Assembly (NCBI GenBank): GCA_035402985.1
Contig: DAONEH010000001.1
Span: 3,123 to 67,122, forward strand
Length of the DNA: 64,000 bases
Direction: 5' to 3'
From: a bacterium
GTDB lineage: Bacteria; Patescibacteriota; Patescibacteriia; Patescibacteriales; UBA12465
The notes under the pieces are model-generated. The model did not search any database. It saw only the letters and a program-made list of their open reading frames with translations, and was not told the origin of the DNA. Position 1 is the first letter of the stretch, and each line of letters begins with the position of its first letter. Below, in pieces: positions 1,831-46,250 of the stretch. Position numbers and translations under genes: made by a program.

Positions 1831-2790
1831 TTATTTTTTATTGAGAAATAATTTTAATATCTTGCTAATCTGTAAATAACTGCCGGCCGTCATTACTTTT
1901 GATCTGATATTTGAAGCTCCAGAGAAATCTTTTAAATACCAAGCCAAATGTCCTTTAAATTCCCCTAAACCAATTTGACCTTTATTTTTCTCCATTAATT
2001 TTAAATGTTTTAAAGCTATTTTGATAGCCATTTTTTTTCGGTCCTCTTTGGATAAATTTTGATATTTATCGGAAAAAATCCAAGGCTGACTCAAAGCTCC
2101 TCGACCGATTCCGACTCCATCAACTCCGGTTTTTTTTATAATTCTATCAATTTCATTCCAATTAGTTATACCGCCATTGGCCAAAATCACTCCGGAAAAA
2201 TATTTTTTACTTTTTTTAATAATCGCCAAATCAATCGGACCGGAAAATAATTGATTTAAAGTTCGACCGTGAATCATTATGGCCGATACCGGTAAATCAG
2301 AAATATTTTTTAAAAAATCAACTAAGTTTACGCCAAAAGCTTCCGTCCGAACTTTTATAGAAACCGGCAGTTTAGTGGTTTTAAGTACGACCGAGATAAT
2401 TTCTCGACTTAAATTTAAATCACTCATTAATTTGGCTCCAGCTCCCTGTTTTAAAACTTTTTTAACCGGACAACCGAAATTAATATCAAAACCATCCGGT
2501 TTTATTTTTTGTTCTATTATTTTTATCGCTTTTATAAAATGATCTTTATTTGAACCAAAAAGTTGAACGACATAAGGTCGTTCTTTTTTAAAAAATTTTA
2601 ATAATTCTAAAGTTTTATCGGAATTATAATATAAAGCTGAAACTGAAGCCATTTCACTATAGACGACATCGGCTCCGAATTCTTTGCATATTAAACGAAA
2701 AGCCGAATCTGTATATCCGGCCAAGGGAGCTAAGGCTAAAATACTTTTACCTTTTTTATTCTTTTGTAAATCTAACCAAAAATTATTCAT
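1831..2790 (-). CDS. dusB: tRNA-dihydrouridine synthase
   Basis: LAPLAGYTDSAFRLICKEFGADVVYSEM and the TIM-barrel FMN region (DINFGCPVKKV, IKVR) are classic Dus motifs. Confidence 0.85.
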   Translation of the reverse strand: MNNFWLDLQKNKKGKSILALAPLAGYTDSAFRLICKEFGADVVYSEMASVSALYYNSDKTLELLKFFKKERPYVVQLFGSNKDHFIKAIKIIEQKIKPDGFDINFGCPVKKVLKQGAGAKLMSDLNLSREIISVVLKTTKLPVSIKVRTEAFGVNLVDFLKNISDLPVSAIMIHGRTLNQLFSGPIDLAIIKKSKKYFSGVILANGGITNWNEIDRIIKKTGVDGVGIGRGALSQPWIFSDKYQNLSKEDRKKMAIKIALKHLKLMEKNKGQIGLGEFKGHLAWYLKDFSGASNIRSKVMTAGSYLQISKILKLFLNKK

Positions 2791-2795
2791 ATTTT

Positions 2796-4220
2796 TTATT
2801 CAATAACACTGCGACCATCCGGCAAATCCTTTACTTTATATCCACGTTGTTCTAATTTTATTCGGACTTCATCGGCTTTAGCAAAATCTTTATTTTGACG
2901 AGCTATGGATCGATCCTCCAATAATTTAATGATATCATCTGGATAATTATTATCTATCTTTTTATTATCTTTATTATCTAACAATGAAGAAAAATTTAAA
3001 GCCCAAACATTATCAAAATCTAAAAGAGTAGCTAACTTATCTTCGTTAGATAAATTTGATTTTAATATATCGGAAATTAAAGATAATGATTTAGGAGTAT
3101 TAAAATCATCTAATAATGCTTCTAAAAATTTATCTTTAAAAACAGAATCAATTTCCCCAACTTCAACTCCTAATTTTTCTATTTTATTATAAATACCAGT
3201 TAAGCCTTTTTGCGCTGCTTTTAAAGCTTCAAAAGTAAAATTCTGTTTAGAACGATAATGAGCTTGTAAATAGAAATAACGTAAGGCCATTGGAGAAAAA
3301 TTTTTATTAATAATATCTTCTAAAGCAAAAGAAGTTCCTTGAGATTTAGACATTTTACCATTATCAATTAAAAGATGTTCATTATGTAACCAATAATTAG
3401 CTAATTTAACACCGCTCACAGCTTCACTTTGAGCAATTTCGTTACTATGATGAATACTTACATGTTCAATTCCACCCATATGAATATCAATAGTTTCTCC
3501 TAATAATTTTCTAATCATCGCCGAACATTCAATATGCCAACCTGGAAAACCATTACCATTTTCAACTAAAGGTGAAACAAAAGGTGATGGCCAAAATTGT
3601 AAAGCATTTTTATGAACACCGGCTCTAAAAAACCAAACAGCAAAATCTTGTGGATTTTTTTTCTTAGGATCATCAATTGCCGCTCGACCAGCTCCAATTT
3701 TATTCTTTTCTGGTTTACGACCTGATAATTGATTATAGTTTTTAAATTTATCAACTTCAAAATAAACAGCTAAGTCAGTAACATAAGCATAAGATTTAGC
3801 AATTAATAATTGAACCATATCAATCATCTCAGAAATATTTTCGGTAGCTCGTGGTTTAAATTTTGGTTCTAAAATATTTAATTTTTTTGTATCTTGCTCA
3901 TAAATATTAATAAATTTATTAACCACCTCTTCTGGCTTAATATTTTCTTTTTTAGCTGTTTTTTCTATTTTATCCTCCCCGATATCAGCATCAGAAGTTA
4001 AATGACCAACATCAGTATAATTTCTCGCCATAGAAACATCATAATTTAAATATTTAAAAGTACGATGTATAATATCAGCACAAAAAGAACCTCGTAAATT
4101 TCCGATATGTTGAGTTGAATAAACGGTTGGTCCACAATAATAAAAAGAAAGATGACCAGGTTGAAGTGGTTTAAATTCTTCTTTCTTTTTAGTTAAAGTA
4201 TTATATAATAATATTTTCAT
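2796..4220 (-). CDS. cysS: Cysteinyl-tRNA synthetase
   Basis: HIGH-type motif CGPTVYSTQHIGNLRG, KMSKS (GKMSKSQG) and a CysRS-like anticodon-binding C-terminus are present. Confidence 0.9.
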   Translation of the reverse strand: MKILLYNTLTKKKEEFKPLQPGHLSFYYCGPTVYSTQHIGNLRGSFCADIIHRTFKYLNYDVSMARNYTDVGHLTSDADIGEDKIEKTAKKENIKPEEVVNKFINIYEQDTKKLNILEPKFKPRATENISEMIDMVQLLIAKSYAYVTDLAVYFEVDKFKNYNQLSGRKPEKNKIGAGRAAIDDPKKKNPQDFAVWFFRAGVHKNALQFWPSPFVSPLVENGNGFPGWHIECSAMIRKLLGETIDIHMGGIEHVSIHHSNEIAQSEAVSGVKLANYWLHNEHLLIDNGKMSKSQGTSFALEDIINKNFSPMALRYFYLQAHYRSKQNFTFEALKAAQKGLTGIYNKIEKLGVEVGEIDSVFKDKFLEALLDDFNTPKSLSLISDILKSNLSNEDKLATLLDFDNVWALNFSSLLDNKDNKKIDNNYPDDIIKLLEDRSIARQNKDFAKADEVRIKLEQRGYKVKDLPDGRSVIE

Positions 4221-4221
4221 A

Positions 4222-5334
4222 TTAATTATTTGATATTTTTTTCATTAATTGATTATAAAACTCTAAATTGTTTAAACTAGCCCATTTTTGACCTAAAGAT
4301 TCATTAATTTTAAACAAATGATGTAAATAAGCTAAAGAATTACTATTTAATTCCTTTAGATTTGATTTTTTATTAATTAATTTAAAATCACTGGCTAAAG
4401 ACGACTTTTTGAGGCTTATTTCTTGGTAAAAATTGCCTGATTTTAAGCTTTTATCATTAAATTGGTATAATTTACCATGACGACCTTCTCGGGTTGGTAT
4501 AACGCAATCAAACATATTCCAGCCCATTTTATAACAACGATAGATATCATTAGGTGTACCAATACCTAAAGCAAACTTAATTTTGTCATCTGGAATGATT
4601 TTAGCAGTAAAATCCAAAATGTCAAACAAGAAATTCCCCTTTTCATCAACTGGTCGAGCCCCAAAACCATAACCAGCAAATTCAATACTTTCGTTTAAAA
4701 ATTTACTTCCACTTATTTCCATTAAAGCATCTAAACATTTTTTTCTAAGTTTTAAACTTAATCCCCCTTGAATTACAGCAATTAATTTCGGACGATTAGT
4801 TTCATTTAATTTTCTTTTCTTTATTTGTCTTATATATTCTTGATAACATCTTTTAGCCCAAGAAATAGTGCGATCAACTGATAAAGCAATTTTCTTTTCA
4901 TCAAAACCATAAGGTGTACAATCATCAAGGCATACCATAAAATCAGTTCCTAAATCAAATTGAATTTGAATTGATTTTTCTGGAGTTATCTCATGTTTAG
5001 ATCCATCTAGTGGTGATTTAAAAATTGCACCCTGATCACTAATTTTACCCATCTGACTATTTTTATGAATTAAAGAAAAAATTTGAAAACCACCACTATC
5101 AGATAATAATGGTTTATCCCAATTCATAAACTTATGTAGTCCCCCAGCTTTTTTTATAACTTTAATTCCAGGTTGTAAATATAAATGAAAAGTATTAACT
5201 ACTAAAGCTGATACCCCACTAGCTATTAAATCTTTTCTATCGCACATTTTTATAACTCCTCTAGTAGCATCGGGCATAAAAATAGGATATTTCAGAACAC
5301 CATGGGAAGTACTAATTTTTTTATTTTTATTCAT
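4222..5334 (-). CDS. tgt: Queuine tRNA-ribosyltransferase, lacking the canonical CxCxxC zinc site
   Basis: The DSGGFQ and FDCVIPTREGRHG catalytic motifs are present. At the position of the bacterial CxCxxC...H Zn motif, the C-terminal region reads LKELNSNSLAYLHHL with no cysteines. Confidence 0.85.
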   Translation of the reverse strand: MNKNKKISTSHGVLKYPIFMPDATRGVIKMCDRKDLIASGVSALVVNTFHLYLQPGIKVIKKAGGLHKFMNWDKPLLSDSGGFQIFSLIHKNSQMGKISDQGAIFKSPLDGSKHEITPEKSIQIQFDLGTDFMVCLDDCTPYGFDEKKIALSVDRTISWAKRCYQEYIRQIKKRKLNETNRPKLIAVIQGGLSLKLRKKCLDALMEISGSKFLNESIEFAGYGFGARPVDEKGNFLFDILDFTAKIIPDDKIKFALGIGTPNDIYRCYKMGWNMFDCVIPTREGRHGKLYQFNDKSLKSGNFYQEISLKKSSLASDFKLINKKSNLKELNSNSLAYLHHLFKINESLGQKWASLNNLEFYNQLMKKISNN

Positions 5335-5342: not shown

Positions 5343-7388
5343 TTATTTAACTCGACCATCATTATTATAGCTAGCAATAATATCATCTTCTAATTTACTA
5401 GTTTTAACACTAGTTGTTTTACTTATAGTAGTATTGGTTTCAGCGTCAATAGCTGAAAGAGATGAACCAGATGATAAAATTATAATTTTATTATACTGAC
5501 TATCAGTTGGAATAACACTAACACTGAAATTAACATCAACTGTTTCAACTCCCACCGGCCAACGACTAATAGAAAAAATAACTTTATTATTAGATTGATC
5601 ATATTCTAAATTACCAGCACTAATATTAAAATTATTATCCCAAATAACATATTGGGGTAAAGCTAATTCAATTTTTAAATCTTTAATTTCGTGTAATGAA
5701 TTTTTTAAAGTCCAATAATATTTAAATGATGTTCTTTCACCAACTACCGGTGGTAAAGGTCCTGAACCAACTGGGATATTATTATCATCAAAGTATAAGA
5801 CTTCTTCTTTTATACTTAAATCACTATTTAATTTATTTACTATGGTATTACTAGAATTATCATTTAAATGATCTTCTTCGTCAGAAAAATCTTCAATATT
5901 ACCAATACTAAATTGAGCATAACTAGTAACATTTAAATCTTGGCCAAATTTAATATCATTATAATTAGGTACAGTATTAATAGAAAATTTAATCTCACCG
6001 CTATCCCCTGGTTCTAATTTTTTTAATTCTGGAATTTCCGAAGCAGTCCAGGAAATTGTTTTACGACTAATACTTCCATCTTTAGAGTCCTTTAAACTAT
6101 TCCAATCTAAAAAATCACTTTTTAATACCGCCATAATAACTAAATCTTCCATATCTTTATCACCTTTATTACTATAAGAAATAACATAATTTAAAGTATC
6201 ACCAAAATTAATTGGAGTATCAGTTGAAGAATCATTAACGGAAATATTTAAATTTAAATCACTTTTTATAATTATTAAAGCCACCTGCTTCTCTAAAAAA
6301 ACAAATTCTTTACCATTATCATCAATATATTTTAAAGTCCAAGAAATATTTTCTTGATCATTTTTTCTTTCCTTTATTTTATATTTAAAAGCTAAAGACA
6401 TTTCACTAGCCGAAGAAGTTTCAACTAGAAAATTAAAATTATCAATTTTACTTACTTTAGTTATTGTTTCCGTACTAGTTCCAGTTTTTTTATTAGTAAT
6501 ATCTTCGACTGAAAAAATTTCTTCTGGACCAGAAAAAGAAATAATAAACTTATTTATTTTTTCTACTGGAAAATCTTTAATGGTAAGATTTAAAGGATAT
6601 TCCTCATCAACTAAAACTGTAGTATAATAATCTTCTTTAACTTGAAATGGCAAGGATCCCATTACTACAGAATTAAGACTATCCTTAGAAAAACTAGAAG
6701 ATAAACCATTAATGCCATAAGTAGCCTTAACTGTTAATAAATTATTAGAACCTTCCTTGTTTATTATTTTTCCTCTTATCTTTATAATACCACCTAAATT
6801 AGCTCCTAAATTATCTATTTTCCAAGTCTTGTTATCATCTGTTTGATCAATCGAATAAATTTCAGCTAAAATAAAATTATCTGGATAATTAATTTCTAAA
6901 ATAACATCATTTAAATTATAATTACTAGTATTTTTATATTCAATTTCATACATAAAATCTTCACCTAAAATTACCTTTTCCGGAGCGCTTATATTTATTT
7001 TCAAAACTGAGGCGATATCTTGATTATTTTTTATATATTTAAAAACAGCCAAAACTACTCCCGCTACAATTAATAGAGTTATAAATAAATAAAATAATTT
7101 TAAACCCAAACTTCTTTTTTTCTTTATTTTTATAGTTTTAAAATCAGTTAAAGATTCTCCATTATCATCACTATATATTTCTCTTAAATGACTTTCAATT
7201 TCACTGTCATTCAATTTAGATTTTTTTTCATTATCATGTTTTGAAGACATAATAGGTTTTTCAAAAAAATCAGTTTCAGAATCATCATCAAATTCCTCTA
7301 AAGAACTATCATTATCAATTTTATGTTTAATAAAAAATAAATTATTTTCTTCTTTTTTATTAAAAATTTTACCTTTATTTTTTAACAT
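5343..7388 (-). CDS. Hypothetical membrane-anchored surface protein (681 aa)
   Basis: It has an acidic, disordered N-terminus, a single TM (LFYLFITLLIVAGVVLAVF) at ~aa 95-115, and then a long S/N/T-rich beta-rich ectodomain. I recognise no enzymatic motif. Confidence 0.55.
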   Translation of the reverse strand: MLKNKGKIFNKKEENNLFFIKHKIDNDSSLEEFDDDSETDFFEKPIMSSKHDNEKKSKLNDSEIESHLREIYSDDNGESLTDFKTIKIKKKRSLGLKLFYLFITLLIVAGVVLAVFKYIKNNQDIASVLKINISAPEKVILGEDFMYEIEYKNTSNYNLNDVILEINYPDNFILAEIYSIDQTDDNKTWKIDNLGANLGGIIKIRGKIINKEGSNNLLTVKATYGINGLSSSFSKDSLNSVVMGSLPFQVKEDYYTTVLVDEEYPLNLTIKDFPVEKINKFIISFSGPEEIFSVEDITNKKTGTSTETITKVSKIDNFNFLVETSSASEMSLAFKYKIKERKNDQENISWTLKYIDDNGKEFVFLEKQVALIIIKSDLNLNISVNDSSTDTPINFGDTLNYVISYSNKGDKDMEDLVIMAVLKSDFLDWNSLKDSKDGSISRKTISWTASEIPELKKLEPGDSGEIKFSINTVPNYNDIKFGQDLNVTSYAQFSIGNIEDFSDEEDHLNDNSSNTIVNKLNSDLSIKEEVLYFDDNNIPVGSGPLPPVVGERTSFKYYWTLKNSLHEIKDLKIELALPQYVIWDNNFNISAGNLEYDQSNNKVIFSISRWPVGVETVDVNFSVSVIPTDSQYNKIIILSSGSSLSAIDAETNTTISKTTSVKTSKLEDDIIASYNNDGRVK

Positions 7389-7409
7389 ATTAATATAATT
7401 AATTATTAT

Positions 7410-10097
7410 TTATTTAAAAATTATAGCTAAATATTTATCGGTAATTAAATTACCAGAAAAATTTATTATTTTATCATTTTGACTAATGTTTTTAGGATAA
7501 GTCCATAAAGTTGATAAATTTAAATTATTAATTAAATTAAAATTAAAAGTGGAATTATTATCACCGGCCTGTTTTTGCCATAATAAAGAATAGTTTTTTA
7601 TAATTTCATCAGAATCAAATAATTTCCAAAAATTCCAAATAGATTTTGGTTCATTGTCAATAAATAAAGTTTTAAAGTTATAAGGTAACTTATATTTAAT
7701 TTCAATTATTTCTGATTGACCAGGATCAAGTATGGACCAATTAGCAAAAACAGTTTTTGAAGATTCTTGATAAATTTTAGTATTACTTAATAAATCAATT
7801 TCAGCCTTATTTTCACTATTAGCTAAAAAACTATTTTGTTCATAAAAATCTTCGGTCGGTTTAAAAGAACTTTCATCCATCGAAGAAAAACCAGTGGCGC
7901 TTATTAAAGTACTACCTAAAGGTGTATAAATTCTCATCCAATCATTATTTCTAATACCAGAAAATAAATTTTCTTTATTACCTAAATGTTCTCTTTTTAT
8001 AGTTAAAGTATTAACAATAGAACCATCATCTTCAATTTCAACATTTAAAGTCATATCGTTTTTTATAAACTTATCGGTCTTACCTCCAGCGACATTAGAA
8101 TTAATTACTGCTAAATAATCAAAAGAAGTTTCTTTCATTCTTCCAGCCCATAAACGATTTTCAACTTCTAACTGAATATTAGGATCAGTAAAATATAATA
8201 AAATATTTTTTTGATTTAAATTTTTTTCAATTACTTGAGATAATTTTATTAAGAAATCTTTATTTAAATTACTAGAGGTTTTCTCTAAAATAATAGTCAT
8301 TAAATCTCCAATAATTTTTTTAGGTTCATTTCTTTTTAATCCATCAGAGACCACTTCTTCTGTAGTTGAACTTAATTCTTTACTAGAACTGGCTACCCTA
8401 TTTAAAATATCAGTTTGTAAATTTTTATTCTGATAAACTTCGGGTTGACCAATAACCTCTACTATTTCTTGAAGAATATCAACAAAATTATTAGAATCAA
8501 TCACTACTCCATATTTTTCAGTTAAATCGATTGGACCAATTATTTCTAAAATATCAGCTAAAACATCTGGGGTTAAACTAATAACACCATCGACACTAGG
8601 CCCACCACTTTTTTCATAAAACCACATTAAATTTTGAGCTGATAATTTCCAATCAGGCCACCAATTAGCATCCCAAAAATACCATTTAGATTTTACTAAA
8701 TGAAGAGGTTTAGGCGATTCCACTGAAATTTTCATACCACCTTCAGTATCATAGGAACCACCAGCTGGTATTTCAATATTTTTAATTTGACCCTTTTTTA
8801 AATCAATTAAAGCATAACTACCTATAAAACCACCGGTAGCTCGAAGTTCAGTATTATTTTGAAAAACAACTAAATAACGTCGATCATGATCAATTCCTAA
8901 AAAATCTTTTAAAACGGGAGCTACTTCTAGAAAACCATTTAAACTTTTTTCTAAAACATCAGCTTGTTCCTTTATATCTTTAAATTGATCACGATATTCC
9001 TCAGGAATAACATCTTCATCTATCTTTTTTAAATATTTATTAGCTTTTTTAAAATCAGCTTCAGTTTTTTTAGTATAATAATAAAAATCAGAGAAATTTT
9101 TTTCAGTTTCATTTTCAGAAAAAACCGCTATTAAACTATTAATGGCTAAACTAAAATTATCACCGGCTGAAGCTAAATAAATTCCAATTTTAGCAATATT
9201 TTTAGATTCAGACGCTAATTTAATTTCTTTGTCTTTAGAAAAAGATGATAAAAATAATAAAAATTCATCAATTTCACCTAATTTTTTATCAACCATTAAA
9301 AAATTTTGACCAGCTTGAAAAAAATCATTTTGGGCTAAACTTAAATTTAAATTTAATATTTCACCTGAAGCCGAAATAAAATTATCTAAACCAAGTGTGG
9401 AATATTGTTTTAAATTATCAATTGTTTTTTGATCAGCTACTAAACGATAATAAGAAAAAAGTTTAAATGGAATTATTAATAAAAATAAAAATAAAACAAA
9501 ATAAATAATTGAATAAGTTTTTTTATTTGTTTTAGTTTTGATATTTGTTTCAAGTATAGAAGTTTTAAAAGTAGGAGTTTCCTTAATTAGTGGTAAAGAT
9601 ATTTGTTTCTTTTTTCTTTTTAACCTAGTTTTTATTTTTAATTTAGTAATATAATTAATTAAAAATTTATATATTTTTTTAAAAAATATAATTGGATATT
9701 TAAAAATTACTAATTTCTTTAAAAAATTAAATATATCTATAGCCCAATCAACAAAGAAGAAAATAATAGCTCTTAATACTTTAAATATAAACAAAAAAAC
9801 TGGAAAGAAAAAAGTTTTTTTAAAACTAGACCAATTAATAAAAAACGATGATTTTTTATTATTGTTTATATCTTTTTTAAAATTATCAATCTTTTTTAAA
9901 ACTTGATTCTGGGATTTATCAAGCTTACTAATATAATTAAAATCATTATCAATTTTATTAGGTGTAATTGGTTTAGGTTTAAAACTACTATCTTTTATTT
10001 CACTAGAAGTTTTTTTTGATTTTGATCTTAAATCAATTACAAAACCAGATTGAGAAAAATCCGATGAAATTTTTATTTTATGTTTTTTTGTTTTCAT
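7410..10097 (-). CDS. Large membrane protein with DUF4012-like domain (895 aa)
   Basis: It has a Lys-rich N-terminus, two or three TM segments, and then RYLVVFQNNTELRATGGFIGSYALIDL. That motif matches my recollection of the DUF4012 signature (Y.LLFQN..E.R.TGGF.G). The remainder is long and asparagine-rich. Confidence 0.55.
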   Translation of the reverse strand: MKTKKHKIKISSDFSQSGFVIDLRSKSKKTSSEIKDSSFKPKPITPNKIDNDFNYISKLDKSQNQVLKKIDNFKKDINNNKKSSFFINWSSFKKTFFFPVFLFIFKVLRAIIFFFVDWAIDIFNFLKKLVIFKYPIIFFKKIYKFLINYITKLKIKTRLKRKKKQISLPLIKETPTFKTSILETNIKTKTNKKTYSIIYFVLFLFLLIIPFKLFSYYRLVADQKTIDNLKQYSTLGLDNFISASGEILNLNLSLAQNDFFQAGQNFLMVDKKLGEIDEFLLFLSSFSKDKEIKLASESKNIAKIGIYLASAGDNFSLAINSLIAVFSENETEKNFSDFYYYTKKTEADFKKANKYLKKIDEDVIPEEYRDQFKDIKEQADVLEKSLNGFLEVAPVLKDFLGIDHDRRYLVVFQNNTELRATGGFIGSYALIDLKKGQIKNIEIPAGGSYDTEGGMKISVESPKPLHLVKSKWYFWDANWWPDWKLSAQNLMWFYEKSGGPSVDGVISLTPDVLADILEIIGPIDLTEKYGVVIDSNNFVDILQEIVEVIGQPEVYQNKNLQTDILNRVASSSKELSSTTEEVVSDGLKRNEPKKIIGDLMTIILEKTSSNLNKDFLIKLSQVIEKNLNQKNILLYFTDPNIQLEVENRLWAGRMKETSFDYLAVINSNVAGGKTDKFIKNDMTLNVEIEDDGSIVNTLTIKREHLGNKENLFSGIRNNDWMRIYTPLGSTLISATGFSSMDESSFKPTEDFYEQNSFLANSENKAEIDLLSNTKIYQESSKTVFANWSILDPGQSEIIEIKYKLPYNFKTLFIDNEPKSIWNFWKLFDSDEIIKNYSLLWQKQAGDNNSTFNFNLINNLNLSTLWTYPKNISQNDKIINFSGNLITDKYLAIIFK

Positions 10098-10107
10098 AAA
10101 ATATGCT

Positions 10108-11289
10108 TTAGCGTAAATAAATCTGCCAAGTTTTAAAAGCGCAATCCCACCAACTAAATTTTTTATGATGAGATTCTCCGGCTATTATTAATTTCTCTCG
10201 TAATTTATTATCATTTAAAATTAATTTTAATTTATCAAGAAAATCAGCTTTGTTTTGAGGATCAAAATAACAAGCTGCTTCCCCTAATATTTCTGGCATA
10301 CTACTAATATTAGAACTTAATACTGGACAACCCTTAGCCATAGCTTCAAGTGGTGGTAAACCAAAACCTTCATATAAAGATGGAAAAACATAAACCAAAG
10401 CTTTTTTATAAAAAATTTCTAGTTTATCATCTGGAACATAACCTGAAAAAATTATTGGATTTTCCGAACAATCAACAAAATAATCATTAGCAAATTTTTT
10501 TAAATTTTTATAAAAATAATCTTCTTTCCCTACTAGCACTAAACGTAAATCATTATTTTCTTTATAAATATCTTTAAAGCTTGAAATTAAAAATTCTAAA
10601 TTTTTATGAGGATAAGCATTACCAACATATAATAAAAAAGGATGATCAATATTATAATCTTTTAATACTTCATTATTATCTAATTTAGCCACAAATAAAG
10701 AATCCCGACCCTTGGCTAAATTAGCTACTCCCTCATAAATAACTTCAATTTTTTGTGGATTAATTTTAAATTGTTCAACAATATCATTTTTAGTAAACTC
10801 TGACACAGTTAAAACTTTTTGTGATTTTTTTAAGGCCCGATTTATTATAATTCTATAAGCGATATTTTTAAGTTTATAAATAAAAGGATGTAGAGTTGTA
10901 GCTCGAATTGTTTTAAACTTAGTTAAAATTAAATCATGCACCGTAACAATAAATTTAGTTGGTACAAAAAATGGTACATTAAAATGCGGAAAATGAATTA
11001 AATCTAATTTTTCCCGCCAAATAAAAAAAGGCATAACTAATTGTTCTTTTAAAGTATACCACTGAACATCAGCCAATACTTTCTTAACATTAGTTTGATT
11101 TTCAATAATAAGCTCGTCAAAATTATTTTTTCTTAAAAAAATAATATACTCATTATAATCATCTAGTTTAATAACATTGTCTACTATTTCTTGAATATAA
11201 CGACCTAAACCCTTACCAACGGGACCATAAAAACGAGCATCAATACCTATTCTTCTTTTTTTATTAGTATCCATGTATTTTTTAACCAA
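10108..11289 (-). CDS. Glycosyltransferase family 1 (GT4-type)
   Basis: [21 protein letters not shown] is the GT1/GT4 nucleotide-sugar binding motif. It overlaps the upstream gene by 8 nt. Confidence 0.85.
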
Positions 11290-12745
11290 AAGGTAAATTA
11301 GAAGGAGGAGTTTTTTTAACTGAGTGGTGTTGAGAGTTAGAAATATTTTGGTCAGAATTATTTTTATTTATTTGTTTTTTTTCAACAGCAATTTCTTTTA
11401 AAAATTCCTCTTTTAATGCTTCCGGTCCAGTAGTAACATCATCAACAGCTAAATTGGCCGGCGGTTTATATCTCTTGGCAGCGGTCTTTTGAATTAACGG
11501 AGCATTAGCCATAGCTTCAATTGGAAAATGCCACAAGGTAGCCAATTCTTCAACATTTAATAAAAAAGGAGAAGAGCCAGCAAAATCATCACGATTAATA
11601 TAATTAGTAATAATATTATTTTTCTTTCTTAATAATTCCCTGTCTTTATTAAAATAAATAGCCTTAGTCATAACCCGAGCATCAGGTTTAAAACTATTTA
11701 AATCTAAAGCCGAAAATTGTTTAATATAACCAACAAAACCACTCGGAACTTTAGATTTATTCATAACTTCTTTTTTTGATAAGTATACTACCCTAATTTT
11801 ACACAAAAAACCTAGTTTTGATGATTTGTTTTCGATTCCCTCGATTCGTTTTTTTTGTTTAGGAGTAAGTTCCATCATCGATAACTTTTTAAATTCATCT
11901 TTTTTACTATCTTCAATATCACCCCAAATACTATAAATCTGCTCACTTAAAAAAGTAATACCTTCAACAATTGTATCTATTATTTTATTAGCTAGGGTTG
12001 ATTCTGGTTTTTTACCTAATATTTTATCAATTTCACCTTTACCATCATCTACCCAATCAAAACCAGTTGGAATAACAATTATCTGATACAATAAATTTTC
12101 TCCTCGTTTTAAACTACTACATAATTCCATTAATTCCGCCATCGGATCCCTAAAAACAGTTTCATCTGGCCCTAAACGATGTTCAAATTCTTCATAAGTT
12201 CTAATAGGATACATATAATGAGCTGAGGGTATAAATTCTGAACCCCAAATATCATATTCTTCATCAGGAAATTTTTTAGGAAAATCTTCACAATAATCAT
12301 CAACTTCCATAATTTCAGCATCAGGGTATTGTGAATAAATAGCTGATTCTACTAAATTTACAAATTGGGTTGGAGTTCTTATTATAAATTGAGTATAACC
12401 ATCTAAACTTGCTATTTCAAAACTAAAAGATAATTGATATTCACCACTAAACCATTTATCAAAAAAATTTTGGGTACCATGGGCTCCAGCAATATAGGCA
12501 AAAAAATTCTCAATCGCTTTAGGTGATTGAATATTACCTCGAGGAACATCTATAGCTAAAAAAGTAAATTTTATATTTTTACTCCATTTAGCTCTAATAT
12601 GTTTTAACCAAATAACTTTAACCCCAGCTAAAAACATAATACCTAAAATAACCCAACCAAAAGTAGCTAAAAAACGCCACAACATCATATCGGGAGCTAA
12701 ATTAAAAAAATTTTGAATAGGGGCAAAATTAATAACAATATCCAT
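11282..12745 (-). CDS. Hypothetical membrane protein (487 aa, two N-terminal TM helices)
   Basis: I recognise no family. N-terminal TM segments are present (WRFLATFGWVILGIMFLAGV). It is translationally coupled to the GT1. Confidence 0.55.
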   Translation of the reverse strand: MDIVINFAPIQNFFNLAPDMMLWRFLATFGWVILGIMFLAGVKVIWLKHIRAKWSKNIKFTFLAIDVPRGNIQSPKAIENFFAYIAGAHGTQNFFDKWFSGEYQLSFSFEIASLDGYTQFIIRTPTQFVNLVESAIYSQYPDAEIMEVDDYCEDFPKKFPDEEYDIWGSEFIPSAHYMYPIRTYEEFEHRLGPDETVFRDPMAELMELCSSLKRGENLLYQIIVIPTGFDWVDDGKGEIDKILGKKPESTLANKIIDTIVEGITFLSEQIYSIWGDIEDSKKDEFKKLSMMELTPKQKKRIEGIENKSSKLGFLCKIRVVYLSKKEVMNKSKVPSGFVGYIKQFSALDLNSFKPDARVMTKAIYFNKDRELLRKKNNIITNYINRDDFAGSSPFLLNVEELATLWHFPIEAMANAPLIQKTAAKRYKPPANLAVDDVTTGPEALKEEFLKEIAVEKKQINKNNSDQNISNSQHHSVKKTPPSNLPFG

Positions 12746-12832
12746 AAAAAAATAACAAGAATTAACTTTCTATATTTTAACATAATTTTTTATTAAAATC
12801 AAAGTAATTCTAGACTATTATTCTTTAAATAA

Positions 12833-12871
12833 TAAAAAAAAGACACCTATTTATTAGGTGCCTTTTTTTAT
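12833..12871 (-). terminator. Rho-independent terminator-like hairpin
   Basis: aaaaaaagacacctatttattaggtgcctttttttat is a stem (cacct/aggtg extended) flanked by an A-run and a T-run. It lies just downstream of the 12884-13909 gene on the minus strand. Confidence 0.45.
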
Positions 12872-12883
12872 ATAAAAATAAGA

Positions 12884-13909
12884 TTATTTTTGCCATTCTT
12901 TTAAACCATAAACTCCTCGGTCAACTAAGACATAACGATCATCTAAAATTAACTCATTATGAACTGATCCCTTACTAATACTCTTTTTATCAAAACCAAT
13001 TTTATTTATTTTTTCAGCAATTTCAGAAAAATGTAAAGGTTTCTTTTCCTCTTTTAAAACTAAAAATATTTTGTCAGCAATTCTTTTAGGCTTTATTTCC
13101 GAAGAATCACTATTTCCCCATAAACCAAATTTATTAGGATTTAAATCTTTAGAAGCTTGCATAAAAGAATAAAATTGTTTATTACGATCAATAACATCAG
13201 CCCATTCTGGGAAAGATTCATCTTTAAAAATTTCTTTTAAATTTAAATTATCATTAGTTTTAATTACTTTATTTTTATACTCAGAAAAAGATTTTAAATT
13301 TTTAGCCATATCAACTAATTCATCAAAAGAAAAAGTCTTTTTTAATTCTCTAACCTTATCCCTTAATTCATCAACTAAGTCTTCAAGATAATCAATGGCT
13401 TGATCTTTCAATTTAAAGAAAGAATTAAATTTATCAGACTTATCAACTTTTTCTACAAAATCATCTAATAATTCAGTTAGAATAAAATCTAAATAATTTT
13501 TATAAATATTTTTATCAAAATTAGAACCTTGACTATCAGCTTTAAAATATAGAACAGTTAAAATATCTAATAAAAAATTCTTTTCCATTACTCCCCCATG
13601 TTCTTTTAAAAGCTCCGACACCACTTTTCTAACTGTATCAAGACGACTATTAATATCATCAATTTTTTTAATTTTTCTTAAAGAAGCTTTTTCGATTTGT
13701 CTAATTCTTTCTCTGGTTAAATTATGTAATTTACCGATTTCTTCTAGGGTTTGAGAATCAACACTATGCAAAGCAAAACGACGAGCTAAAACGTCTTTTT
13801 CTCGATCTTGTAATTCATTAAATAAAGAATTAACTATCTTAACAGCATTTAAATTAGCTAATTCTTGTTCTTTTTTCTCTTTTAATAATTTTGGCAATAA
13901 ATTTTCCAT
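12884..13909 (-). CDS. Sigma-70 region-4 domain protein with C-terminal HARE-HTH-like winged helix
   Basis: The N-terminus (EKDVLARRFALHSVDSQTLEEIGKLHNLTRERIRQIEKASLRKIKK) is a textbook sigma-70 region 4 HTH. The C-terminus (LHFSEIAEKINKIGF...VHNELILDDRYVLVDRGVYGLKEW) resembles the HARE-HTH / RNAP delta-subunit N-terminal domain. The middle is acidic and coiled. Confidence 0.55.
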   Translation of the reverse strand: MENLLPKLLKEKKEQELANLNAVKIVNSLFNELQDREKDVLARRFALHSVDSQTLEEIGKLHNLTRERIRQIEKASLRKIKKIDDINSRLDTVRKVVSELLKEHGGVMEKNFLLDILTVLYFKADSQGSNFDKNIYKNYLDFILTELLDDFVEKVDKSDKFNSFFKLKDQAIDYLEDLVDELRDKVRELKKTFSFDELVDMAKNLKSFSEYKNKVIKTNDNLNLKEIFKDESFPEWADVIDRNKQFYSFMQASKDLNPNKFGLWGNSDSSEIKPKRIADKIFLVLKEEKKPLHFSEIAEKINKIGFDKKSISKGSVHNELILDDRYVLVDRGVYGLKEWQK

Positions 13910-13956: not shown

Positions 13957-15006
13957 TTATAAGTCAAGACCTTTCATAAAAGTTTCTATTTTAGTAATTA
14001 TTTCCCTATTTATCGATAAATTAGTATTATTTTCTTTAATTTGAGAACGTATTTTTTTAAAATTATTTAATGATTGTTTTTCAAAAAGAAAACCATAAAT
14101 ATACAAAAAAATCAACCTAAATTTAGTACTAAATCGAACTACAAAAGAAAAAGGTATCTTTTTAATTTTATATAAGATAATAAGTTGATTTAAAAAAGAT
14201 CGACTATTAGATATTTTCTTTTCTTTATCAAAAATTTTTTTAAAAATATTTTTTTTACTTAAAGTCCGATCATGATACATAATTGCTTCAGGTAAAAAAA
14301 TAATCTTCTTTCCAGCTAATTGTAAACGATATGATAAATCAATATCTTCTTTATACATAAACATTAATTCATCAAAAAATTCTAAATAATCACCTACTAA
14401 ATTAGCTGATATAAGTATTTGAGATAAATTAAATAAAGCTCCGGCTCCAGTAAAACCAAATACTTCTCTATTATTTTCAACTAAGTATTGTAATTGTTTT
14501 TTGCCTTGGCCTAAATCAAAAAAATGATGAAACTTATTTAGACCAAGACCATAGCTATCAATAATATCAGTTTTTTTATTAAGATTAAAATTCCAATATA
14601 ATATTTTAGGAACCCATACGGCGATATTATTATCTAATTTATGGGCCATAATTAATTTTTCTAAAAACAAATCATCAAAGACAACATCAGGATTAATAAC
14701 TAAAAATAAATCCGACTTATTTTGTAATGACCAATTAAGCATTAAGTTATAAGCCTTAGCAAAACCTAAATTAGACGATGATCGCCAAATTTTGTAATCA
14801 TATTTTTTATCACTAAAAGCATTAGATAAAAAATCAAAATTACCAGTAAAAGAAGTATCACTATTATCAACTATTAAAATATCTATATCCAAATCAACTA
14901 AATTACTTTTAGCTTGATTAATAGTTGAAAATAAACTAGGTAAAAAAAATGGTAGATATTTTAAACTATTATTATTATAAGTTATGAAAGCAATTGAAAG
15001 TTTCAT
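13957..15006 (-). CDS. Glycosyltransferase family 2
   Basis: The N-terminal GT-A region (SIAFITYNN...ILIVDNSDTS...VINPDVVFDD) is typical of GT2 rhamnosyl/glycosyl transferases. Confidence 0.7.
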   Translation of the reverse strand: MKLSIAFITYNNNSLKYLPFFLPSLFSTINQAKSNLVDLDIDILIVDNSDTSFTGNFDFLSNAFSDKKYDYKIWRSSSNLGFAKAYNLMLNWSLQNKSDLFLVINPDVVFDDLFLEKLIMAHKLDNNIAVWVPKILYWNFNLNKKTDIIDSYGLGLNKFHHFFDLGQGKKQLQYLVENNREVFGFTGAGALFNLSQILISANLVGDYLEFFDELMFMYKEDIDLSYRLQLAGKKIIFLPEAIMYHDRTLSKKNIFKKIFDKEKKISNSRSFLNQLIILYKIKKIPFSFVVRFSTKFRLIFLYIYGFLFEKQSLNNFKKIRSQIKENNTNLSINREIITKIETFMKGLDL

Positions 15007-31866: not shown

Positions 31867-33876
31867 CTACTTAATAAATCTAAAAATATAAAGTTTACCC
31901 TCATCAATACTATAATAATCATCAGCTACTGCTTTCATTTCTTCAATTATTTTATCAAAAGCCCACCAATAATCATTAACGACTACTAAACATTCATCCG
32001 CTCCAGTTTTATCTAATAAGTCCTTAGCTAATTCTTTATCAGGATTAGCTATTATTTTTAAATAATAATCATATAATAATCCACCAGTTTGAACCGAATA
32101 ATAAAACCAAGAATCATAATAACGTTTAAAACCATATTCTTTGATAGCGGCTGCCCCCACCTGCTGATTAGCTAAAACTATATAATTATCATTAATTTTA
32201 TGCTCTTCAATATGTTTAACAGTTGAAAAATCGGATTGAGACACAGAAAAAGATCGAGAATTAAAATAATTATCTTTACGTGGATAATTAAGATATAAAG
32301 AAACAAGACATAGGACACCAAGAAATATTAATAATATAATTTTAAATATTCTAGCTTCCTTCTCTATTTTTTTTAATAAACAAACAAACATATCATAAAA
32401 AACTGGAACTAAAAATAAGAAAGAAATTATTAAAATCCGCTTAGCATAAGAATCTTTATCCACGGCACTTAAAAAAGGAAAATCAATAAAAGAACTCAAT
32501 ATATAAGAAAATATTAAAGCTAAAGAATTAAAAAAGAAAATTTTTAATTCCGGACGACCTTTTTTAAAAACAAAAAAGGTTATTATGATAAACAATAATA
32601 ATAGCCACCAATTATTATTAGAACCAAAAAAATAAATAAAATTAAGAAATATATTTTCTTGTCCTAAAAAATTAAAAGACCATTTTGAAAAATCAAAACT
32701 TCCAATTGAAAAACGTCCACCAATTATAATTAAAAGAATTGGTAAAATAATAATTTGTCCTAAATAACTTAAAATTTTACCTAATTTTAAAAATTTAATT
32801 GGTATTCTACTTGTTTCTAATTTATTTAAAAATAATATAAAAACAAAAATAATGGCTGGAATACCAGCTAAGGGATGAATAAAAAATATACTTAAAGCTA
32901 TGGAGAATAAAAAAATAAAATTATACCGATTAGCAATAAAGTATTTATTAAATGAAAACAATATTAAAATAATCAGGAATAAAAAAGATAAATTTTGTGG
33001 AACGGTATAAGTAAAAATAGAAAATGGTAATAATAAAAAGATTATTAAAGGCCAAATTATTTTATTATACCCTCTGTTTCTAAAATTAAACCAAAAAGTT
33101 AGAGGAATTAAAATAGCTGATAATACTGGTACTAATAATTTATTTATTAAACCAATTGATAAAGGTAAAATTTTAAAAAGCGATAATTCTAAAACATATT
33201 GACCTATATAATAAATTGTTTTAGGCTCAATTAAACCAGTTGACAAAATATCAATCATGGCTCGCTCATGAAGAAGTTGATCATAACCAAAAGCTATTTT
33301 ATAAATAAAAACAGAAATAGAAAAAAATAAAAAATACCATAAAATTATAAAAAGATAAGACCAAGAGTTTTTTTGATAAAAACTTAAAAATATTAATCCA
33401 ATTAAAAGACCAATTAATACCCAAAAATACCAAGGAAGAAAAAACCAGGGTGAAGCTATAGCTCCTAAACTTCCAGCTTTAAACAATACAAAAAACAAAT
33501 AAGCAAAAATAATAAAGATACCAGCTGAAATAATTATTTTTAATCCTTTATTTTTTTTCTTTAAAGTATCTAACTCTATTTTATCAATTTCTTGCTGATT
33601 AGGACGAGAAATGATAAAATATATAAACAGACCAGTAAAAAATAAGGCTAAAATTAAAGAAATTAAAGCTGTTAAATTATTAAAACGATAAAAATAATAA
33701 ATAATTGAAGCGTTATTTATAAACAACGATAAAAATAATAATCCAATTATTAACCAATTTCTTTTGCTATAATGTAATATTTTATTAATAGTCATACTTA
33801 TATAATATACCATAATATATGAAAATTGCCCAAGTAGTTTGTGTTTACCCACCCTATGCCGGTGGAATTGGAACAT
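31867..33876 (-). CDS. Large polytopic membrane protein (>=12 TM) with C-terminal soluble domain; probable GT-C-type glycosyltransferase (ArnT/PMT-like)
   Basis: The architecture is ~450 aa of TM helices followed by a ~200-aa C-terminal globular domain. It sits in a GT-rich, polyprenyl-P-sugar context. The likely true start is downstream (MTINKIL..., ~33795), because the annotated 5' end overlaps the divergent GT1 start. Confidence 0.45.
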   Translation of the reverse strand: MFQFHRHRVGKHKLLGQFSYIMVYYISMTINKILHYSKRNWLIIGLLFLSLFINNASIIYYFYRFNNLTALISLILALFFTGLFIYFIISRPNQQEIDKIELDTLKKKNKGLKIIISAGIFIIFAYLFFVLFKAGSLGAIASPWFFLPWYFWVLIGLLIGLIFLSFYQKNSWSYLFIILWYFLFFSISVFIYKIAFGYDQLLHERAMIDILSTGLIEPKTIYYIGQYVLELSLFKILPLSIGLINKLLVPVLSAILIPLTFWFNFRNRGYNKIIWPLIIFLLLPFSIFTYTVPQNLSFLFLIILILFSFNKYFIANRYNFIFLFSIALSIFFIHPLAGIPAIIFVFILFLNKLETSRIPIKFLKLGKILSYLGQIIILPILLIIIGGRFSIGSFDFSKWSFNFLGQENIFLNFIYFFGSNNNWWLLLLFIIITFFVFKKGRPELKIFFFNSLALIFSYILSSFIDFPFLSAVDKDSYAKRILIISFLFLVPVFYDMFVCLLKKIEKEARIFKIILLIFLGVLCLVSLYLNYPRKDNYFNSRSFSVSQSDFSTVKHIEEHKINDNYIVLANQQVGAAAIKEYGFKRYYDSWFYYSVQTGGLLYDYYLKIIANPDKELAKDLLDKTGADECLVVVNDYWWAFDKIIEEMKAVADDYYSIDEGKLYIFRFIK

Positions 33877-34922
33877 CAGCCCAAAAATTACAAAAAATAT
33901 TATCTGACCAACACGAAGTTTTTGTTTTTACCCCAATTAATAAAAATAAAAATAATAATAATTTGGAAAATAATATCATTCGATTAAAACCAAGCTTAAA
34001 ATTAGGCCATGGAGCCATCCTTTGTTCCCTACTTAAAAAACTAAAAAACTTTGATTTAATATATTTTCATTATCCTTTTTTTGGCACCGGAATAATAATA
34101 TGGTTATTTAAAATTTTTAATCCTCAAAAAAAACTAATTATCCAATACCACATGGATGTTAGACAAAAAAATATTATTTATAAAATATTGAGTTGGCCTG
34201 AAGAAATTATTAAAAAATCATTATTTAAAAAAGCTGATTTAATAATAGTAGCTTCTTTAGATTATATTAAACACAGTAAAATAAAAAATATTTATCAAAA
34301 ATATCAATCTAAATTTAAAGAAATTCCTTTTTCCGTTGATACTAATAAATTTAAACCAAATACTAATCAAATAATAAAAGATAATATTATATTATTTGTA
34401 GGAGGATTAGACAAAGCTCATTATTTTAAAGGAGTTGATATTTTAATTCAGGCGGTTAATTTAATTAAAGATCAAGATTATATATTAAAAATAGCTGGTA
34501 CTGGTCAATTAGCTAAGGATTATAAAAAATTAACTCAGGAATTAAAAATTGATAATAAAGTAATATTTTTAGGAAAACTTAATGAAAATGAATTAATAGC
34601 AAATTATCAAAATGCCAAAGTTTTAGTTTTGCCATCTATTAATAATAATGAAGCTTTTGGTATTGTTTTGATAGAAGCGATGGCTTGTGGTACTCCCGTT
34701 ATTGCTTCTAATTTACCTGGGGTTCGTTTAGTGTTTGAAGATAAAATATCAGGTTTCCAAACAGAAGTAAAAAATATTATTGATTTAAAAAATAAACTAG
34801 AAATTATTTTAGCTGATGATATTTCTCTTAACATGGGCCAAAAAGCTCAGCAATTGGTTAAAGAAAAATATTCTGATATAGTAGTAAGTTCTAAAATACT
34901 AAATTTAATAAATTCTTTATGA
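33819..34922 (+). CDS. Glycosyltransferase family 1 (GT4-type)
   Basis: EAFGIVLIEAMACGTPVIASN is present. The TGA stop overlaps the next ATG (ATGA). Confidence 0.85.
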   Translation: MKIAQVVCVYPPYAGGIGTSAQKLQKILSDQHEVFVFTPINKNKNNNNLENNIIRLKPSLKLGHGAILCSLLKKLKNFDLIYFHYPFFGTGIIIWLFKIFNPQKKLIIQYHMDVRQKNIIYKILSWPEEIIKKSLFKKADLIIVASLDYIKHSKIKNIYQKYQSKFKEIPFSVDTNKFKPNTNQIIKDNIILFVGGLDKAHYFKGVDILIQAVNLIKDQDYILKIAGTGQLAKDYKKLTQELKIDNKVIFLGKLNENELIANYQNAKVLVLPSINNNEAFGIVLIEAMACGTPVIASNLPGVRLVFEDKISGFQTEVKNIIDLKNKLEIILADDISLNMGQKAQQLVKEKYSDIVVSSKILNLINSL

Positions 34923-37319: not shown

Positions 37320-37335
37320 ATTTTTATTTATAATT

Positions 37336-38256: not shown

Positions 38257-38406
38257 GGAAAAATCAATAAATTATTACTAAATATATTATACCATATTTA
38301 TTGGGATAAATAAAAACATATGTATTAAAATAACTTGCTTTTTAAAAAATAATATGCTTAGATTATATAATAAATTAGTCCTTTTAAAAAACCAAAAAAA
38401 TAAAAC

Positions 38407-39042: not shown

Positions 39043-39074
39043 ATAATCAAAAAACCTAGACAATCAAGAGTTAG

Positions 39075-39110
39075 AAAAGGAAGATAAATATCTTCCTTTT
39101 TTTATTTTAT
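39075..39110 (+). terminator. Rho-independent terminator
   Basis: aaaaggaagataaatatcttcctttttttatttt is a near-perfect inverted repeat followed by a T-run. Confidence 0.6.
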
Positions 39111-39301
39111 TCAAAAAATATAAATTTTTATTTTATTTTAAAAATACAAGCTTTTTATTTTAAAAATATAACAAAAATATACTAAACCTTGATTTATTTT
39201 TATCATTATGATAATATCAAACTAACCATAAACTTAGATGGTTTTTTATAATTATTGAGGAATATCGTAAAATTTGACGAAATTACCTTAAACAAGCAAA
39301 T

Positions 39302-39574: not shown

Positions 39575-39642
39575 CATAAGATAGTATAAATAAAAGCGCC
39601 ATATTTGGTGCTTTTATATTACCAAAAAACAAAAAAAACATT

Positions 39643-40683: not shown

Positions 40684-40687
40684 AAAT

Positions 40688-41569: not shown

Positions 41570-41575
41570 ATTAAA

Positions 41576-44926: not shown

Positions 44927-44988
44927 ATATTTAAACTTTAATATAAATATATATTAACCTGTTATAATTTTTTAGTCAATAAATTATA

Positions 44989-46245: not shown

Positions 46246-46250
46246 AAAAT

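Follow-up and report, generated by a model that had tools for sequence, protein, structure and literature searches.

The window analysed here is a stretch of 64,000 nucleotides from contig DAONEH010000001.1, and its subject is a group of four consecutive minus-strand genes (5343-12745) which code, in the order of transcription, for a DUF8128 protein, a GT4 glycosyltransferase, a DUF4012 protein, and a surface protein with a CLIPPER domain. With a probability of about 0.6, these genes represent two functionally separate modules that were set side by side by rearrangement, inside a long housekeeping operon of a Falkowbacteria-related Patescibacteria genome. In module A, the DUF8128 protein would be the subunit that anchors a split translocase of the FtsK/HerA superfamily in the membrane. 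The motor would be a soluble, TrwB/VirD4-like zinc-finger ATPase, which is encoded by the next gene in most relatives, while in the clade of the window the motor gene would have become separated from that of the anchor. The anchor may recruit a hexameric ATPase to the membrane, in the manner of VirB3 together with the VirB4 N-terminal domain, or of TrsD with TrsE. Module B (5343-11274), which consists of a cytoplasmic GT4 enzyme, an extracytoplasmic DUF4012 protein, and an N-terminally anchored CLIPPER protein, would be a cell-surface module whose proteins jointly build, attach, or arrange a glycopolymer of the surface or a layer of glycosylated surface protein. The reading builds on family memberships, domain architectures, synteny, and fold similarity, from which topology, interactions, substrates, and an enzymatic role of DUF4012 are predicted.

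The protein encoded at 11282-12745 (minus strand; 487 amino acids [aa]) is assigned to DUF8128 (PF26449) by orthology and was not scored directly: the domain is precomputed for 119 of 120 listed homologs, which are 52-89% identical over the full length, and for the orthologs found in the same gene order. The local copy of Pfam-A apparently lacks PF26449, and a scan against it returned no family for the 487-aa protein and only noise across 46 diverse DUF8128 proteins. The family comprises 1723 clusters at 50% identity, with lengths of about 420-690 aa among the members shown; no mention of it was found in a literature search. The protein has one N-terminal transmembrane (TM) segment (approximately residues 22-46), which is followed by the strongly basic stretch LKHIRAKWSKNIK, an alpha/beta domain (residues 57-415), and a disordered tail. 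The positive-inside rule predicts a cytoplasmic location of the globular part, which would then not be an ectodomain. The tail (residues 416-487; 11282-11540 in the window) carries two PPxNLP-type motifs, KPPANLA at about residues 428-434 and, as a C-terminal copy, PPSNLPFG. The latter hardly varies between DUF8128 orthologs and is a candidate docking motif.

An AlphaFold2 model of the 487-aa protein (predicted local distance difference test [pLDDT] 75; predicted template modelling score [pTM] 0.69) was compared with the PDB using Foldseek. The seven best chains are all TrwK, the VirB4 protein of plasmid R388 (E = 1e-3 to 5e-3, probability 0.91-0.99), and the next unrelated match has a probability of 0.08. 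Because neither VirB4 structures restricted to the C-terminal domain nor other ATPases of RecA type are among the matches, this model most probably corresponds to the N-terminal domain of VirB4. A sequence-profile search of the PDB gave no match for DUF8128. That the 487-aa protein is itself a VirB4 was considered and rejected: it matches no P-loop family, has no ATPase domain, and ends after the N-domain-like fold and the tail. We read DUF8128 as a VirB4-N-domain-like membrane anchor and not as an envelope-glycan protein.

The gene context of DUF8128 was analysed in 80 fetched genome loci (counts are given over 82), which were annotated with phmmer and hidden Markov models (HMMs); at least 554 species-level genomes had been matched. 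Named genomes among the matches are those of Falkow-, Buchanan-, Magasanik-, Uhr-, and Kerfeldbacteria and of Parcubacteria. Many contigs from metagenome-assembled genomes (MAGs) which are clearly patescibacterial (L006, L009, L010, L013, L017, and others) carry the title "uncultured Gammaproteobacteria bacterium", and another bears the name "Candidatus Binatia"; such titles were given by the submitters and do not indicate taxonomy. In 50 of the 82 genome loci, the gene directly after DUF8128 codes for an ATPase of about 630 aa. This protein matches TrwB_AAD_bind, DUF87, TraG-D_C, and T4SS-DNA_transf, has the Walker A motif GKTGMGKS, and ends with a treble-clef zinc finger (zf_Tbcl_2) which is preceded by a disordered linker. 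Its best sequence match in the PDB is the coupling protein TrwB (E = 1.2e-5). Among 80 metagenome loci centred on the ATPase, most of those with a sufficient length of preceding sequence have DUF8128 directly before the ATPase gene.

On its upstream side, DUF8128 has as its most constant neighbour a gene for a protein with sigma-70 region 4 and HARE-HTH domains (sigma-r4/HARE-HTH), which holds position -1 in 43 of 82 genome loci and in roughly half of 80 metagenome loci (among L012-L084 and L096-L169). This gene, DUF8128, and the gene for the zinc-finger ATPase make up a recurring unit of three, upstream of which secA, secD, and secF are commonly found. DNA recognition for the translocase and an RNA polymerase delta-like factor are candidate roles for the sigma-r4/HARE-HTH protein. 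In two loci (L054, 5979-7625; L058, 6153-7817), the SecD encoded upstream of the unit has a PpiC-type peptidyl-prolyl isomerase domain inserted between the first P1 subdomain and the P1 head.

Five loci code for fused paralogs of 831-856 aa, the fifth copy being that of locus L090. In four of these proteins, the DUF8128 HMM matches residues 20-420 approximately (E = 1e-39 to 1e-42), including the motif LNxEELAxLWHFP, and the 487-aa protein of the window itself matches the fused proteins with E = 1e-10 to 2e-14. The C-terminal halves match TrwB_AAD_bind, T4SS-DNA_transf, DUF87, and TraG-D_C, and represent the same HerA-type ATPase, related to type IV coupling proteins (T4CPs). A PPxxxPxEG motif resembling those in the DUF8128 tail is found in the fused paralogs where the DUF8128 part joins the ATPase domain. 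Because DUF8128 and the ATPase are encoded by adjacent genes in some genomes and by a single fused gene in others, the two are probably functionally linked. The 487-aa protein is homologous to the N-terminal half of T4CP-like ATPase fusions from the candidate phyla radiation (CPR), and the adjacent ATPase gene is absent in the window.

Neither an ATPase partner nor a fused paralog is encoded in the 64-kb window. In the clade of the window, DUF8128 is no less conserved than in other lineages, being about 50% identical to ATPase-adjacent orthologs, and a working ATPase partner is therefore likely to be encoded elsewhere in the genome. ATPase orthologs without an upstream DUF8128 gene occur in three metagenome loci (L100, approximately 2769-4661; L102, 5995-7875; L105, 6007-7968), which share the order nrdD, nrdG, ATPase, RNase-T-like exonuclease, GT2. 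The ATPase of L105 is 77% identical to that of the closest ATPase-adjacent type. Such an order is the arrangement to be expected where the motor is separated from the anchor; the contigs are not tied to the organism of the window, as the neighbouring genes gave no link to it. With nrdDG and an exonuclease as neighbours, the ATPase may act on nucleic acid. Considering this context together with the zinc finger of the ATPase and the HARE-HTH neighbour, the substrate of module A is probably DNA.

The association of DUF8128 with the other three genes is confined to one clade. The full order GT2, sigma-r4/HARE-HTH, DUF8128, GT4, DUF4012, CLIPPER, tgt was encountered only in the closest, Falkowbacteria-like clade (13 genome loci and the loci L085-L087), in which DUF8128 identity is about 49% or more and DUF4012 identity goes down to about 42%. 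In these block-type loci, GT2 is found at position -2 of DUF8128. Two Falkowbacteria block loci have a TerC gene inserted after DUF8128 and before GT4 (L002, 11493-12419; L003, 10663-11589), and in another lineage a TerC-family gene directly follows the CLIPPER gene (L092, 11135-12049). DUF4012 was not found within 10 kb on either side of DUF8128 in 69 of 82 genome loci, and none of the 80 metagenome loci has it within 6 kb on either side of the ATPase. The only juxtaposition of both modules seen outside the clade of the window is that in L090 (Parcubacteria MAG GCA_018902835.1), in which a gene for a fused protein of 833 aa (DUF8128 plus DUF87/T4SS-DNA_transf; 11101-13602) directly follows DUF4012 and CLIPPER.

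DUF4012 and CLIPPER form a near-obligate pair. They are adjacent, in this order, in 19 of 20 distinct contexts (the exception is L094), and the pair persists in L089-L093, in which CLIPPER identity has dropped to 31-37%. The neighbours of the pair change: GT4, a double GT4, GT2, Wzy_C, GHL15, Bac_transf, RmlA/D-like genes, and UppS were encountered. In most related lineages, the gene that comes after CLIPPER is tgt. Genes of the dcw and mre groups and many glycosyltransferase genes are likewise present in the window, which we count in favour of module B.

The DUF4012 protein (7410-10097, minus strand; 895 aa) was identified as an open reading frame (ORF) with a match to Pfam DUF4012 (PF13196; E = 8.1e-29; score of 101.4 bits, the cut-off being 28) over residues 404-544, and all 56 aligned orthologs also have this match. 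It is 100% identical to a public protein (P0121) which is annotated as "DUF4012 domain-containing protein". Hydrophobic segments are found at residues 98-125 and 196-214, only the latter being conserved among orthologs. According to the AlphaFold2 model (pLDDT 74.8, pTM 0.67), a disordered basic N-terminus and the TM segment at 196-214 are followed by a long helical bundle (approximately 223-399), an alpha/beta core (404-650), and a C-terminal beta-sandwich (660-895). The core is the DUF4012 domain and has invariant Trp, Asp, and Arg residues in the ortholog alignment, for example, in the motif WxFWDANWWPDW; Asp405, Arg407, Arg419, and Asp503 are among the conserved positions. The protein would be bitopic, with an extracytoplasmic part of about 680 residues composed of a helical stalk, the Trp-rich core, and the beta-sandwich. 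Foldseek matches of the model in the PDB are generic beta-sandwich domains (the N-domain of M1 peptidases, ribophorin I) and one structure of a LytR-CpsA-Psr (LCP) protein, 3pe5; a sequence-profile search of the PDB gave no match. We infer that DUF4012 binds or processes a glycan.

The CLIPPER protein (5343-7388, minus strand; 681 aa) is likewise called from an ORF and Pfam matches. DUF7619 (PF24595; E = 1.6e-7, 31.9 bits against a cut-off of 27) and DUF11/CLIPPER (PF01345; E = 6.8e-7, 30.0 bits against a cut-off of 24.6) both span residues 382-477 approximately, and a second DUF11-type repeat at residues 138-171 is weak and below the cut-off. CLIPPER domains are CnaA-like and occur extracellularly in surface proteins, and some DUF11 domains lack the isopeptide bond (bioRxiv 10.1101/2025.04.25.650565). 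A single hydrophobic segment (residues 98-116) provides an N-terminal anchor. The ectodomain is free of cysteine and has 27.3% Ser, Thr, and Asn, compared to 16.4% in 18 other proteins of the window. Orthologs in Patescibacteria have a uniform length of about 660 aa.

The GT4 glycosyltransferase (10108-11274 with the more probable ATG start, 388 aa; alternatively 10108-11289 with a TTG start, 393 aa; minus strand; ORF and Pfam) has both halves of the GT-B fold, matching Glycos_transf_1 over residues 215-372 (E = 5e-35) and Glyco_transf_4 over residues 76-188 (E = 1.4e-12). Lacking a hydrophobic segment, it is a cytoplasmic, soluble GT-B enzyme. An identity as GT4-conflict was rejected, since that Pfam match, with 33 bits, is far below the generic GT4 matches (121 bits).

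A preliminary description of this locus had reported three large membrane proteins of 681, 895, and 487 aa and a GT1 glycosyltransferase, co-oriented with tgt, cysS, and dus. ORFs of 681, 895, 393 (with the TTG start), and 487 aa, followed by tgt, cysS, and dus, were recovered at the stated positions on the minus strand. It had also pointed to a DUF4012-like motif in the 895-aa protein; the motif, RYLVVFQNNTELRATGGFIGSY (residues 407-428), does lie within the Pfam match (E = 8.1e-29). Its view of the 681-aa protein as single-pass with an ectodomain rich in Ser, Asn, and Thr agrees with our data, while of the N-terminal TM segments ascribed to the 895-aa protein, two were found and one is conserved. 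The four ORFs are true genes and not chance ORFs, because many full-length orthologs and identical public copies exist. Homolog searches returned 1772 matches for the 487-aa, 1235 for the 895-aa, and 125 for the 681-aa protein, and identical copies of window proteins are found in public MAG data (P0121; P0391, annotated as "hypothetical protein") and on the 213-kb JGI contig Ga0116247_10000051.

The window has 26-30% GC, is 93% coding, and has nearly all of its genes on the minus strand; no RNA genes or tRNAs were found in its 64 kb. Directly after the end of the CLIPPER gene, tgt (4222-5334), cysS (2796-4220), and dus (1831-2790) continue on the minus strand with gaps of 1-8 nucleotides (nt); these ORFs were named from the TGT, tRNA-synt_1e, and Dus annotations of their orthologs. 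Same-strand gaps in the window have a median of 11 nt, and of the 53 gaps, 33 do not exceed 25 nt. Because a spacing of 1-25 nt is the rule throughout the genome, tight packing is the genome norm and says nothing on function. In streamlined genomes, tight packing and co-orientation alone are no evidence of shared function.

Upstream of DUF8128, also on the minus strand, are the genes for the sigma-70 region 4/HARE-HTH protein (12884-13909; 341 aa; Sigma70_r4 with E = 6.4e-14, HARE-HTH with E = 4.3e-7) and for a GT2-family glycosyltransferase (13957-15006; Glycos_transf_2 and Glyco_trans_2_3). A sequence scan detected an intrinsic-terminator-like hairpin on the minus strand after the former gene (12835-12869; a stem of 15 pairs followed by a T-run). 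A promoter-like site (12774-12802, minus strand; TTGATT, a 17-nt spacer, TG, TAAAAT) was detected by consensus scan only. Both lie between the sigma-r4/HARE-HTH gene and DUF8128, and the candidate promoter probably marks the start of a long transcription unit DUF8128-GT4-DUF4012-CLIPPER-tgt-cysS-dus. Public gene calls have a GT product of 388 aa, corresponding to the ATG at 11274, which agrees with orthologs (e.g., that of L001, with 388 aa) and leaves a gap of 7 nt between the DUF8128 and GT4 genes. Only with the TTG start at 11289 do the genes overlap, by 8 nt. Across orthologous loci this gap varies from about 0 to 82 nt, and an overlap is not conserved.

Several results weigh against a division into two separate modules as proposed here. 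No gene for an ATPase partner was found in the part of this genome that the 64-kb window covers. The gap between DUF8128 and GT4 is about 0-27 nt in most loci of the clade, within which the two genes are probably co-transcribed, and L090 is a second, apparently independent juxtaposition of the modules which hints at a functional link. Regarding module A, the Foldseek TM-scores of DUF8128 against TrwK/VirB4 are low (about 0.29), and hhalign gave a probability of 0.2% against TrwK and of 1.1% against pSK41 TrsD, with single-sequence targets and hence low power. From these low TM-scores and the negative hhalign results, it follows that the resemblance between DUF8128 and VirB4 is structural and architectural and not one of family membership. 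Regarding module B, no NCBIfam equivalog reaches its cut-off for the GT4 protein, and the lone LCP structural match of DUF4012 has no profile backing (hhalign of the DUF4012 profile against four LCP sequences, probability 0.1%).

It is unlikely that there is no functional module at all, the locus being just a set of unrelated membrane and envelope genes in the frozen order of a small, rarely rearranged genome. In favour of such an explanation, the operon includes tgt, cysS, and dus and is uniformly tightly packed. The adjacency of CLIPPER and tgt is as conserved as that of DUF4012 and CLIPPER, tgt being functionally unrelated, and GT4 is not constant upstream of DUF4012 (L090, L092). However, the DUF4012-CLIPPER pair survives rearrangement, with its 19 of 20 contexts comprising at least five upstream neighbourhoods, and the surrounding genes are repeatedly glycan genes. 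The occurrence of DUF8128 and the ATPase both as neighbours and as a fusion is a classic signature of a functional link.

We regard as quite improbable the original interpretation of the locus, according to which DUF8128, GT4, DUF4012, and CLIPPER form one dedicated system for a surface glycoconjugate or an S-layer-like coat. Every block-type locus has the four genes in the same order together with GT2, sigma-r4/HARE-HTH, and tgt; the junctions are short, and the terminator and promoter-like site before DUF8128 make co-transcription probable. The fused DUF8128-ATPase gene directly after DUF4012-CLIPPER in L090 could be taken in the same sense. Yet outside one clade, DUF8128 is never found beside GT4 or DUF4012 and has the ATPase instead, as an adjacent gene in the 50 of 82 loci or as a fusion, and its globular domain is predicted to be cytoplasmic and VirB4-N-domain-like. 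Co-transcription extends to the plainly unrelated genes tgt, cysS, and dus, and gaps of this size are the genome norm, so that the tight packing (a median of 11 nt window-wide) loses the weight given to it in the preliminary description. The translational coupling between the 487-aa protein and the glycosyltransferase that had been proposed there hinges on the unlikely TTG start, the ATG leaving a 7-nt gap. Nor are the families lineage-specific, as had been suggested: the three large proteins belong to widely distributed Pfam families (DUF4012, DUF11/CLIPPER, DUF8128). They are also not lineage-wide singletons devoid of synteny, since hundreds of orthologs and conserved neighbours were found. 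Conservation as a block holds in related genomes, with the full order limited to one Falkowbacteria-like clade. What can be kept of the surface-glycoconjugate role is its application to GT4, DUF4012, and CLIPPER, for which it is reasonable in view of the pairing and the glycan neighbours; for DUF8128 it is unsupported.

We find it very unlikely that the T4CP-like machine (DUF8128 anchor and ATPase) is the export or assembly motor of a DUF4012/CLIPPER structure, the two being coupled though usually unlinked. There are two distinct juxtapositions, that of the short DUF8128 upstream in the clade of the window and that of the fused form downstream in L090, the usual surroundings of DUF8128 are protein export genes (secA-secD-secF), and T4CP homologues of Patescibacteria are regarded as possibly exapted (PMC12102498). 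This is opposed by the ATPase-centred metagenome loci, 0 of 80 of which have DUF4012 within 6 kb, and by the fused paralogs, four of five of which are not near DUF4012. The CLIPPER and DUF4012 proteins have ordinary N-terminal TM anchors which are compatible with Sec/YidC insertion, and the zinc finger and the nrdDG/exonuclease context of the ATPase point to nucleic acid, not to protein or glycan. A specific version is that Patescibacteria of ABY1/Parcubacteria type carry a core chromosomal, non-conjugative translocase (VirB4-N-domain-like DUF8128 anchor plus soluble, T4CP-like zinc-finger ATPase) which is physically and functionally coupled to DUF4012/CLIPPER in the clade of the window and, independently, in L090 and powers export or assembly of a surface layer which mediates epibiosis; we consider this a long shot. 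Membership in a defence system is rejected, as PADLOC models gave no match in any of the four proteins.

We thus return to two separate modules as our preferred reading. The presence of DUF4012 in CPR (PMC6744442) and the abundance of orphan T4CP homologues (PMC12102498) were already known. New are the near-obligate pairing of DUF4012 with CLIPPER, the proposal that DUF8128 is a VirB4-N-domain-like anchor which is either split from or fused to a T4CP-like motor, and the proposed separation of anchor and motor in the clade of the window. The envelope of CPR/Patescibacteria and the transport of DNA and proteins across it are almost uncharacterised, and the DUF4012-CLIPPER pair is a candidate for a conserved surface structure or glycoprotein. 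A recent survey (2025) reported 5,713 VirD4-like T4CP homologues in 2,918 Patescibacteria genomes, most of them far from virB4 and possibly exapted (PMC12102498). A machine composed of DUF8128 and a T4CP-like ATPase would explain thousands of such orphan VirD4-like genes by providing an anchor with a VirB4-like fold, and about two T4CPs per genome would fit one split and one fused copy.

Other parts of the window have features of their own. A 669-aa ORF without Pfam match (31867-33876, minus strand) overlaps with its 5' end the start of a divergent GT4 gene (33819-34922, plus strand) by 58 nt. This gene opens a second glycan-rich stretch (33819-43908), with further GT4 genes at 34919-36055 and 42691-43908, an RmlD-like reductase (37336-38256), and a DUF3048 protein (41576-42694). 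The adjoining region (43913-54053) has two MreB paralogs (43913-44926 and 53010-54053) along with MreC and MreD. Between the MreB paralogs, an ABC system of MacB type, composed of one ATPase and two MacB_PCD/FtsX permeases, is encoded along with a 636-aa HlyD-like adaptor (44989-50144), which is not usual for an organism believed to lack an outer membrane.

The proteins of module B can be compared with several known systems. With fibrillar adhesins and other archaeal or bacterial surface proteins that have CLIPPER or DUF7619 domains, the 681-aa protein shares above-threshold Pfam matches, a predicted extracellular location, and beta-sandwich repeats in the ectodomain. It differs in being short, with few repeats and no ectodomain cysteines, and in being anchored by an N-terminal TM helix, not by a sortase, OmpA, or S-layer anchor. 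Its gene is single-copy, syntenic, and core-like and is not that of a variable adhesin. DUF4012 (fam000574) was listed by Méheust et al. (2019) among families common to CPR and Gram-positives and probably related to the envelope (PMC6744442), and a DUF4012 protein is encoded in a Bifidobacterium exopolysaccharide cluster (PMC5412050). That gene, BL105A_0406 of the eps cluster of Bifidobacterium longum 105-A, belongs to the same Pfam family and is found among genes for a priming transferase, Wzz, and glycosyltransferases, whereas in Patescibacteria DUF4012 is found among GT4, GT2, Wzy_C, Bac_transf, and GHL15. The patescibacterial proteins have a long basic N-terminal tail and about 850-900 aa, while the Bifidobacterium gene has 1,730 bp. 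The close pairing with CLIPPER is seen in Patescibacteria, the loci of which were those examined for it.

LCP proteins resemble DUF4012 in having an extracytoplasmic alpha/beta domain on a TM anchor and in being encoded in glycopolymer loci, and the structure 3pe5, confirmed as LCP through its match to TagU, matches the DUF4012 model by Foldseek (E = 3.4e-3, TM-score 0.39 on the target). On the other hand, the top 50 Foldseek matches of the model contain no further LCP structure. No LytR_cpsA_psr signal was detected by HMMER at E <= 10 in 56 DUF4012 proteins, and no LCP genes, which were sought in order to deepen the LCP profile, were found in 84 related loci. The motifs look alike by eye; as the profile tests are negative, DUF4012 as an enzyme of LCP fold is rejected and kept as a lead only.

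Module A is best compared with the ATPases of type IV secretion systems (T4SS). VirB4 (TrwK of R388) provides the only PDB fold matches of high probability for the DUF8128 model and has the same succession of a membrane-associated N-terminal module and a P-loop domain of the FtsK/HerA superfamily. TrsD/TrsE (pGO1/pSK41, MPF-FATA) illustrate that the N-terminal module and the ATPase can be encoded by separate, adjacent genes, and TrsD, which has been described as a remote homolog of the VirB4 N-terminus, is the most abundant T4SS component in Patescibacteria (PMC12102498). Unlike VirB4 and TrsD, DUF8128 has a TM helix of its own, and it has no detectable sequence similarity to TrwK or pSK41 TrsD. 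In contrast to VirB4, its partner ATPase scores best against T4CP (TrwB/VirD4) models and has a C-terminal zinc finger. Around DUF8128 and its ATPase, no genes for VirB3, VirB6, VirB8, pilin, or relaxase were noticed; the context consists of secA-secDF and housekeeping genes. The partner ATPases and the C-terminal halves of the fused proteins are akin to T4CPs (VirD4/TrwB), matching T4CP families and TrwB in the PDB. The canonical T4CP, however, is self-anchored by N-terminal TM helices and has no VirB4-like N-domain, whereas in the DUF8128 unit a soluble motor is combined with a separate anchor of about 400 residues; the protein of the window represents the anchor only and is not a T4CP. If this assignment of anchor and motor is true, the unit has an architecture intermediate between VirB4 and VirD4, which bears on the divergence of both T4SS ATPases.

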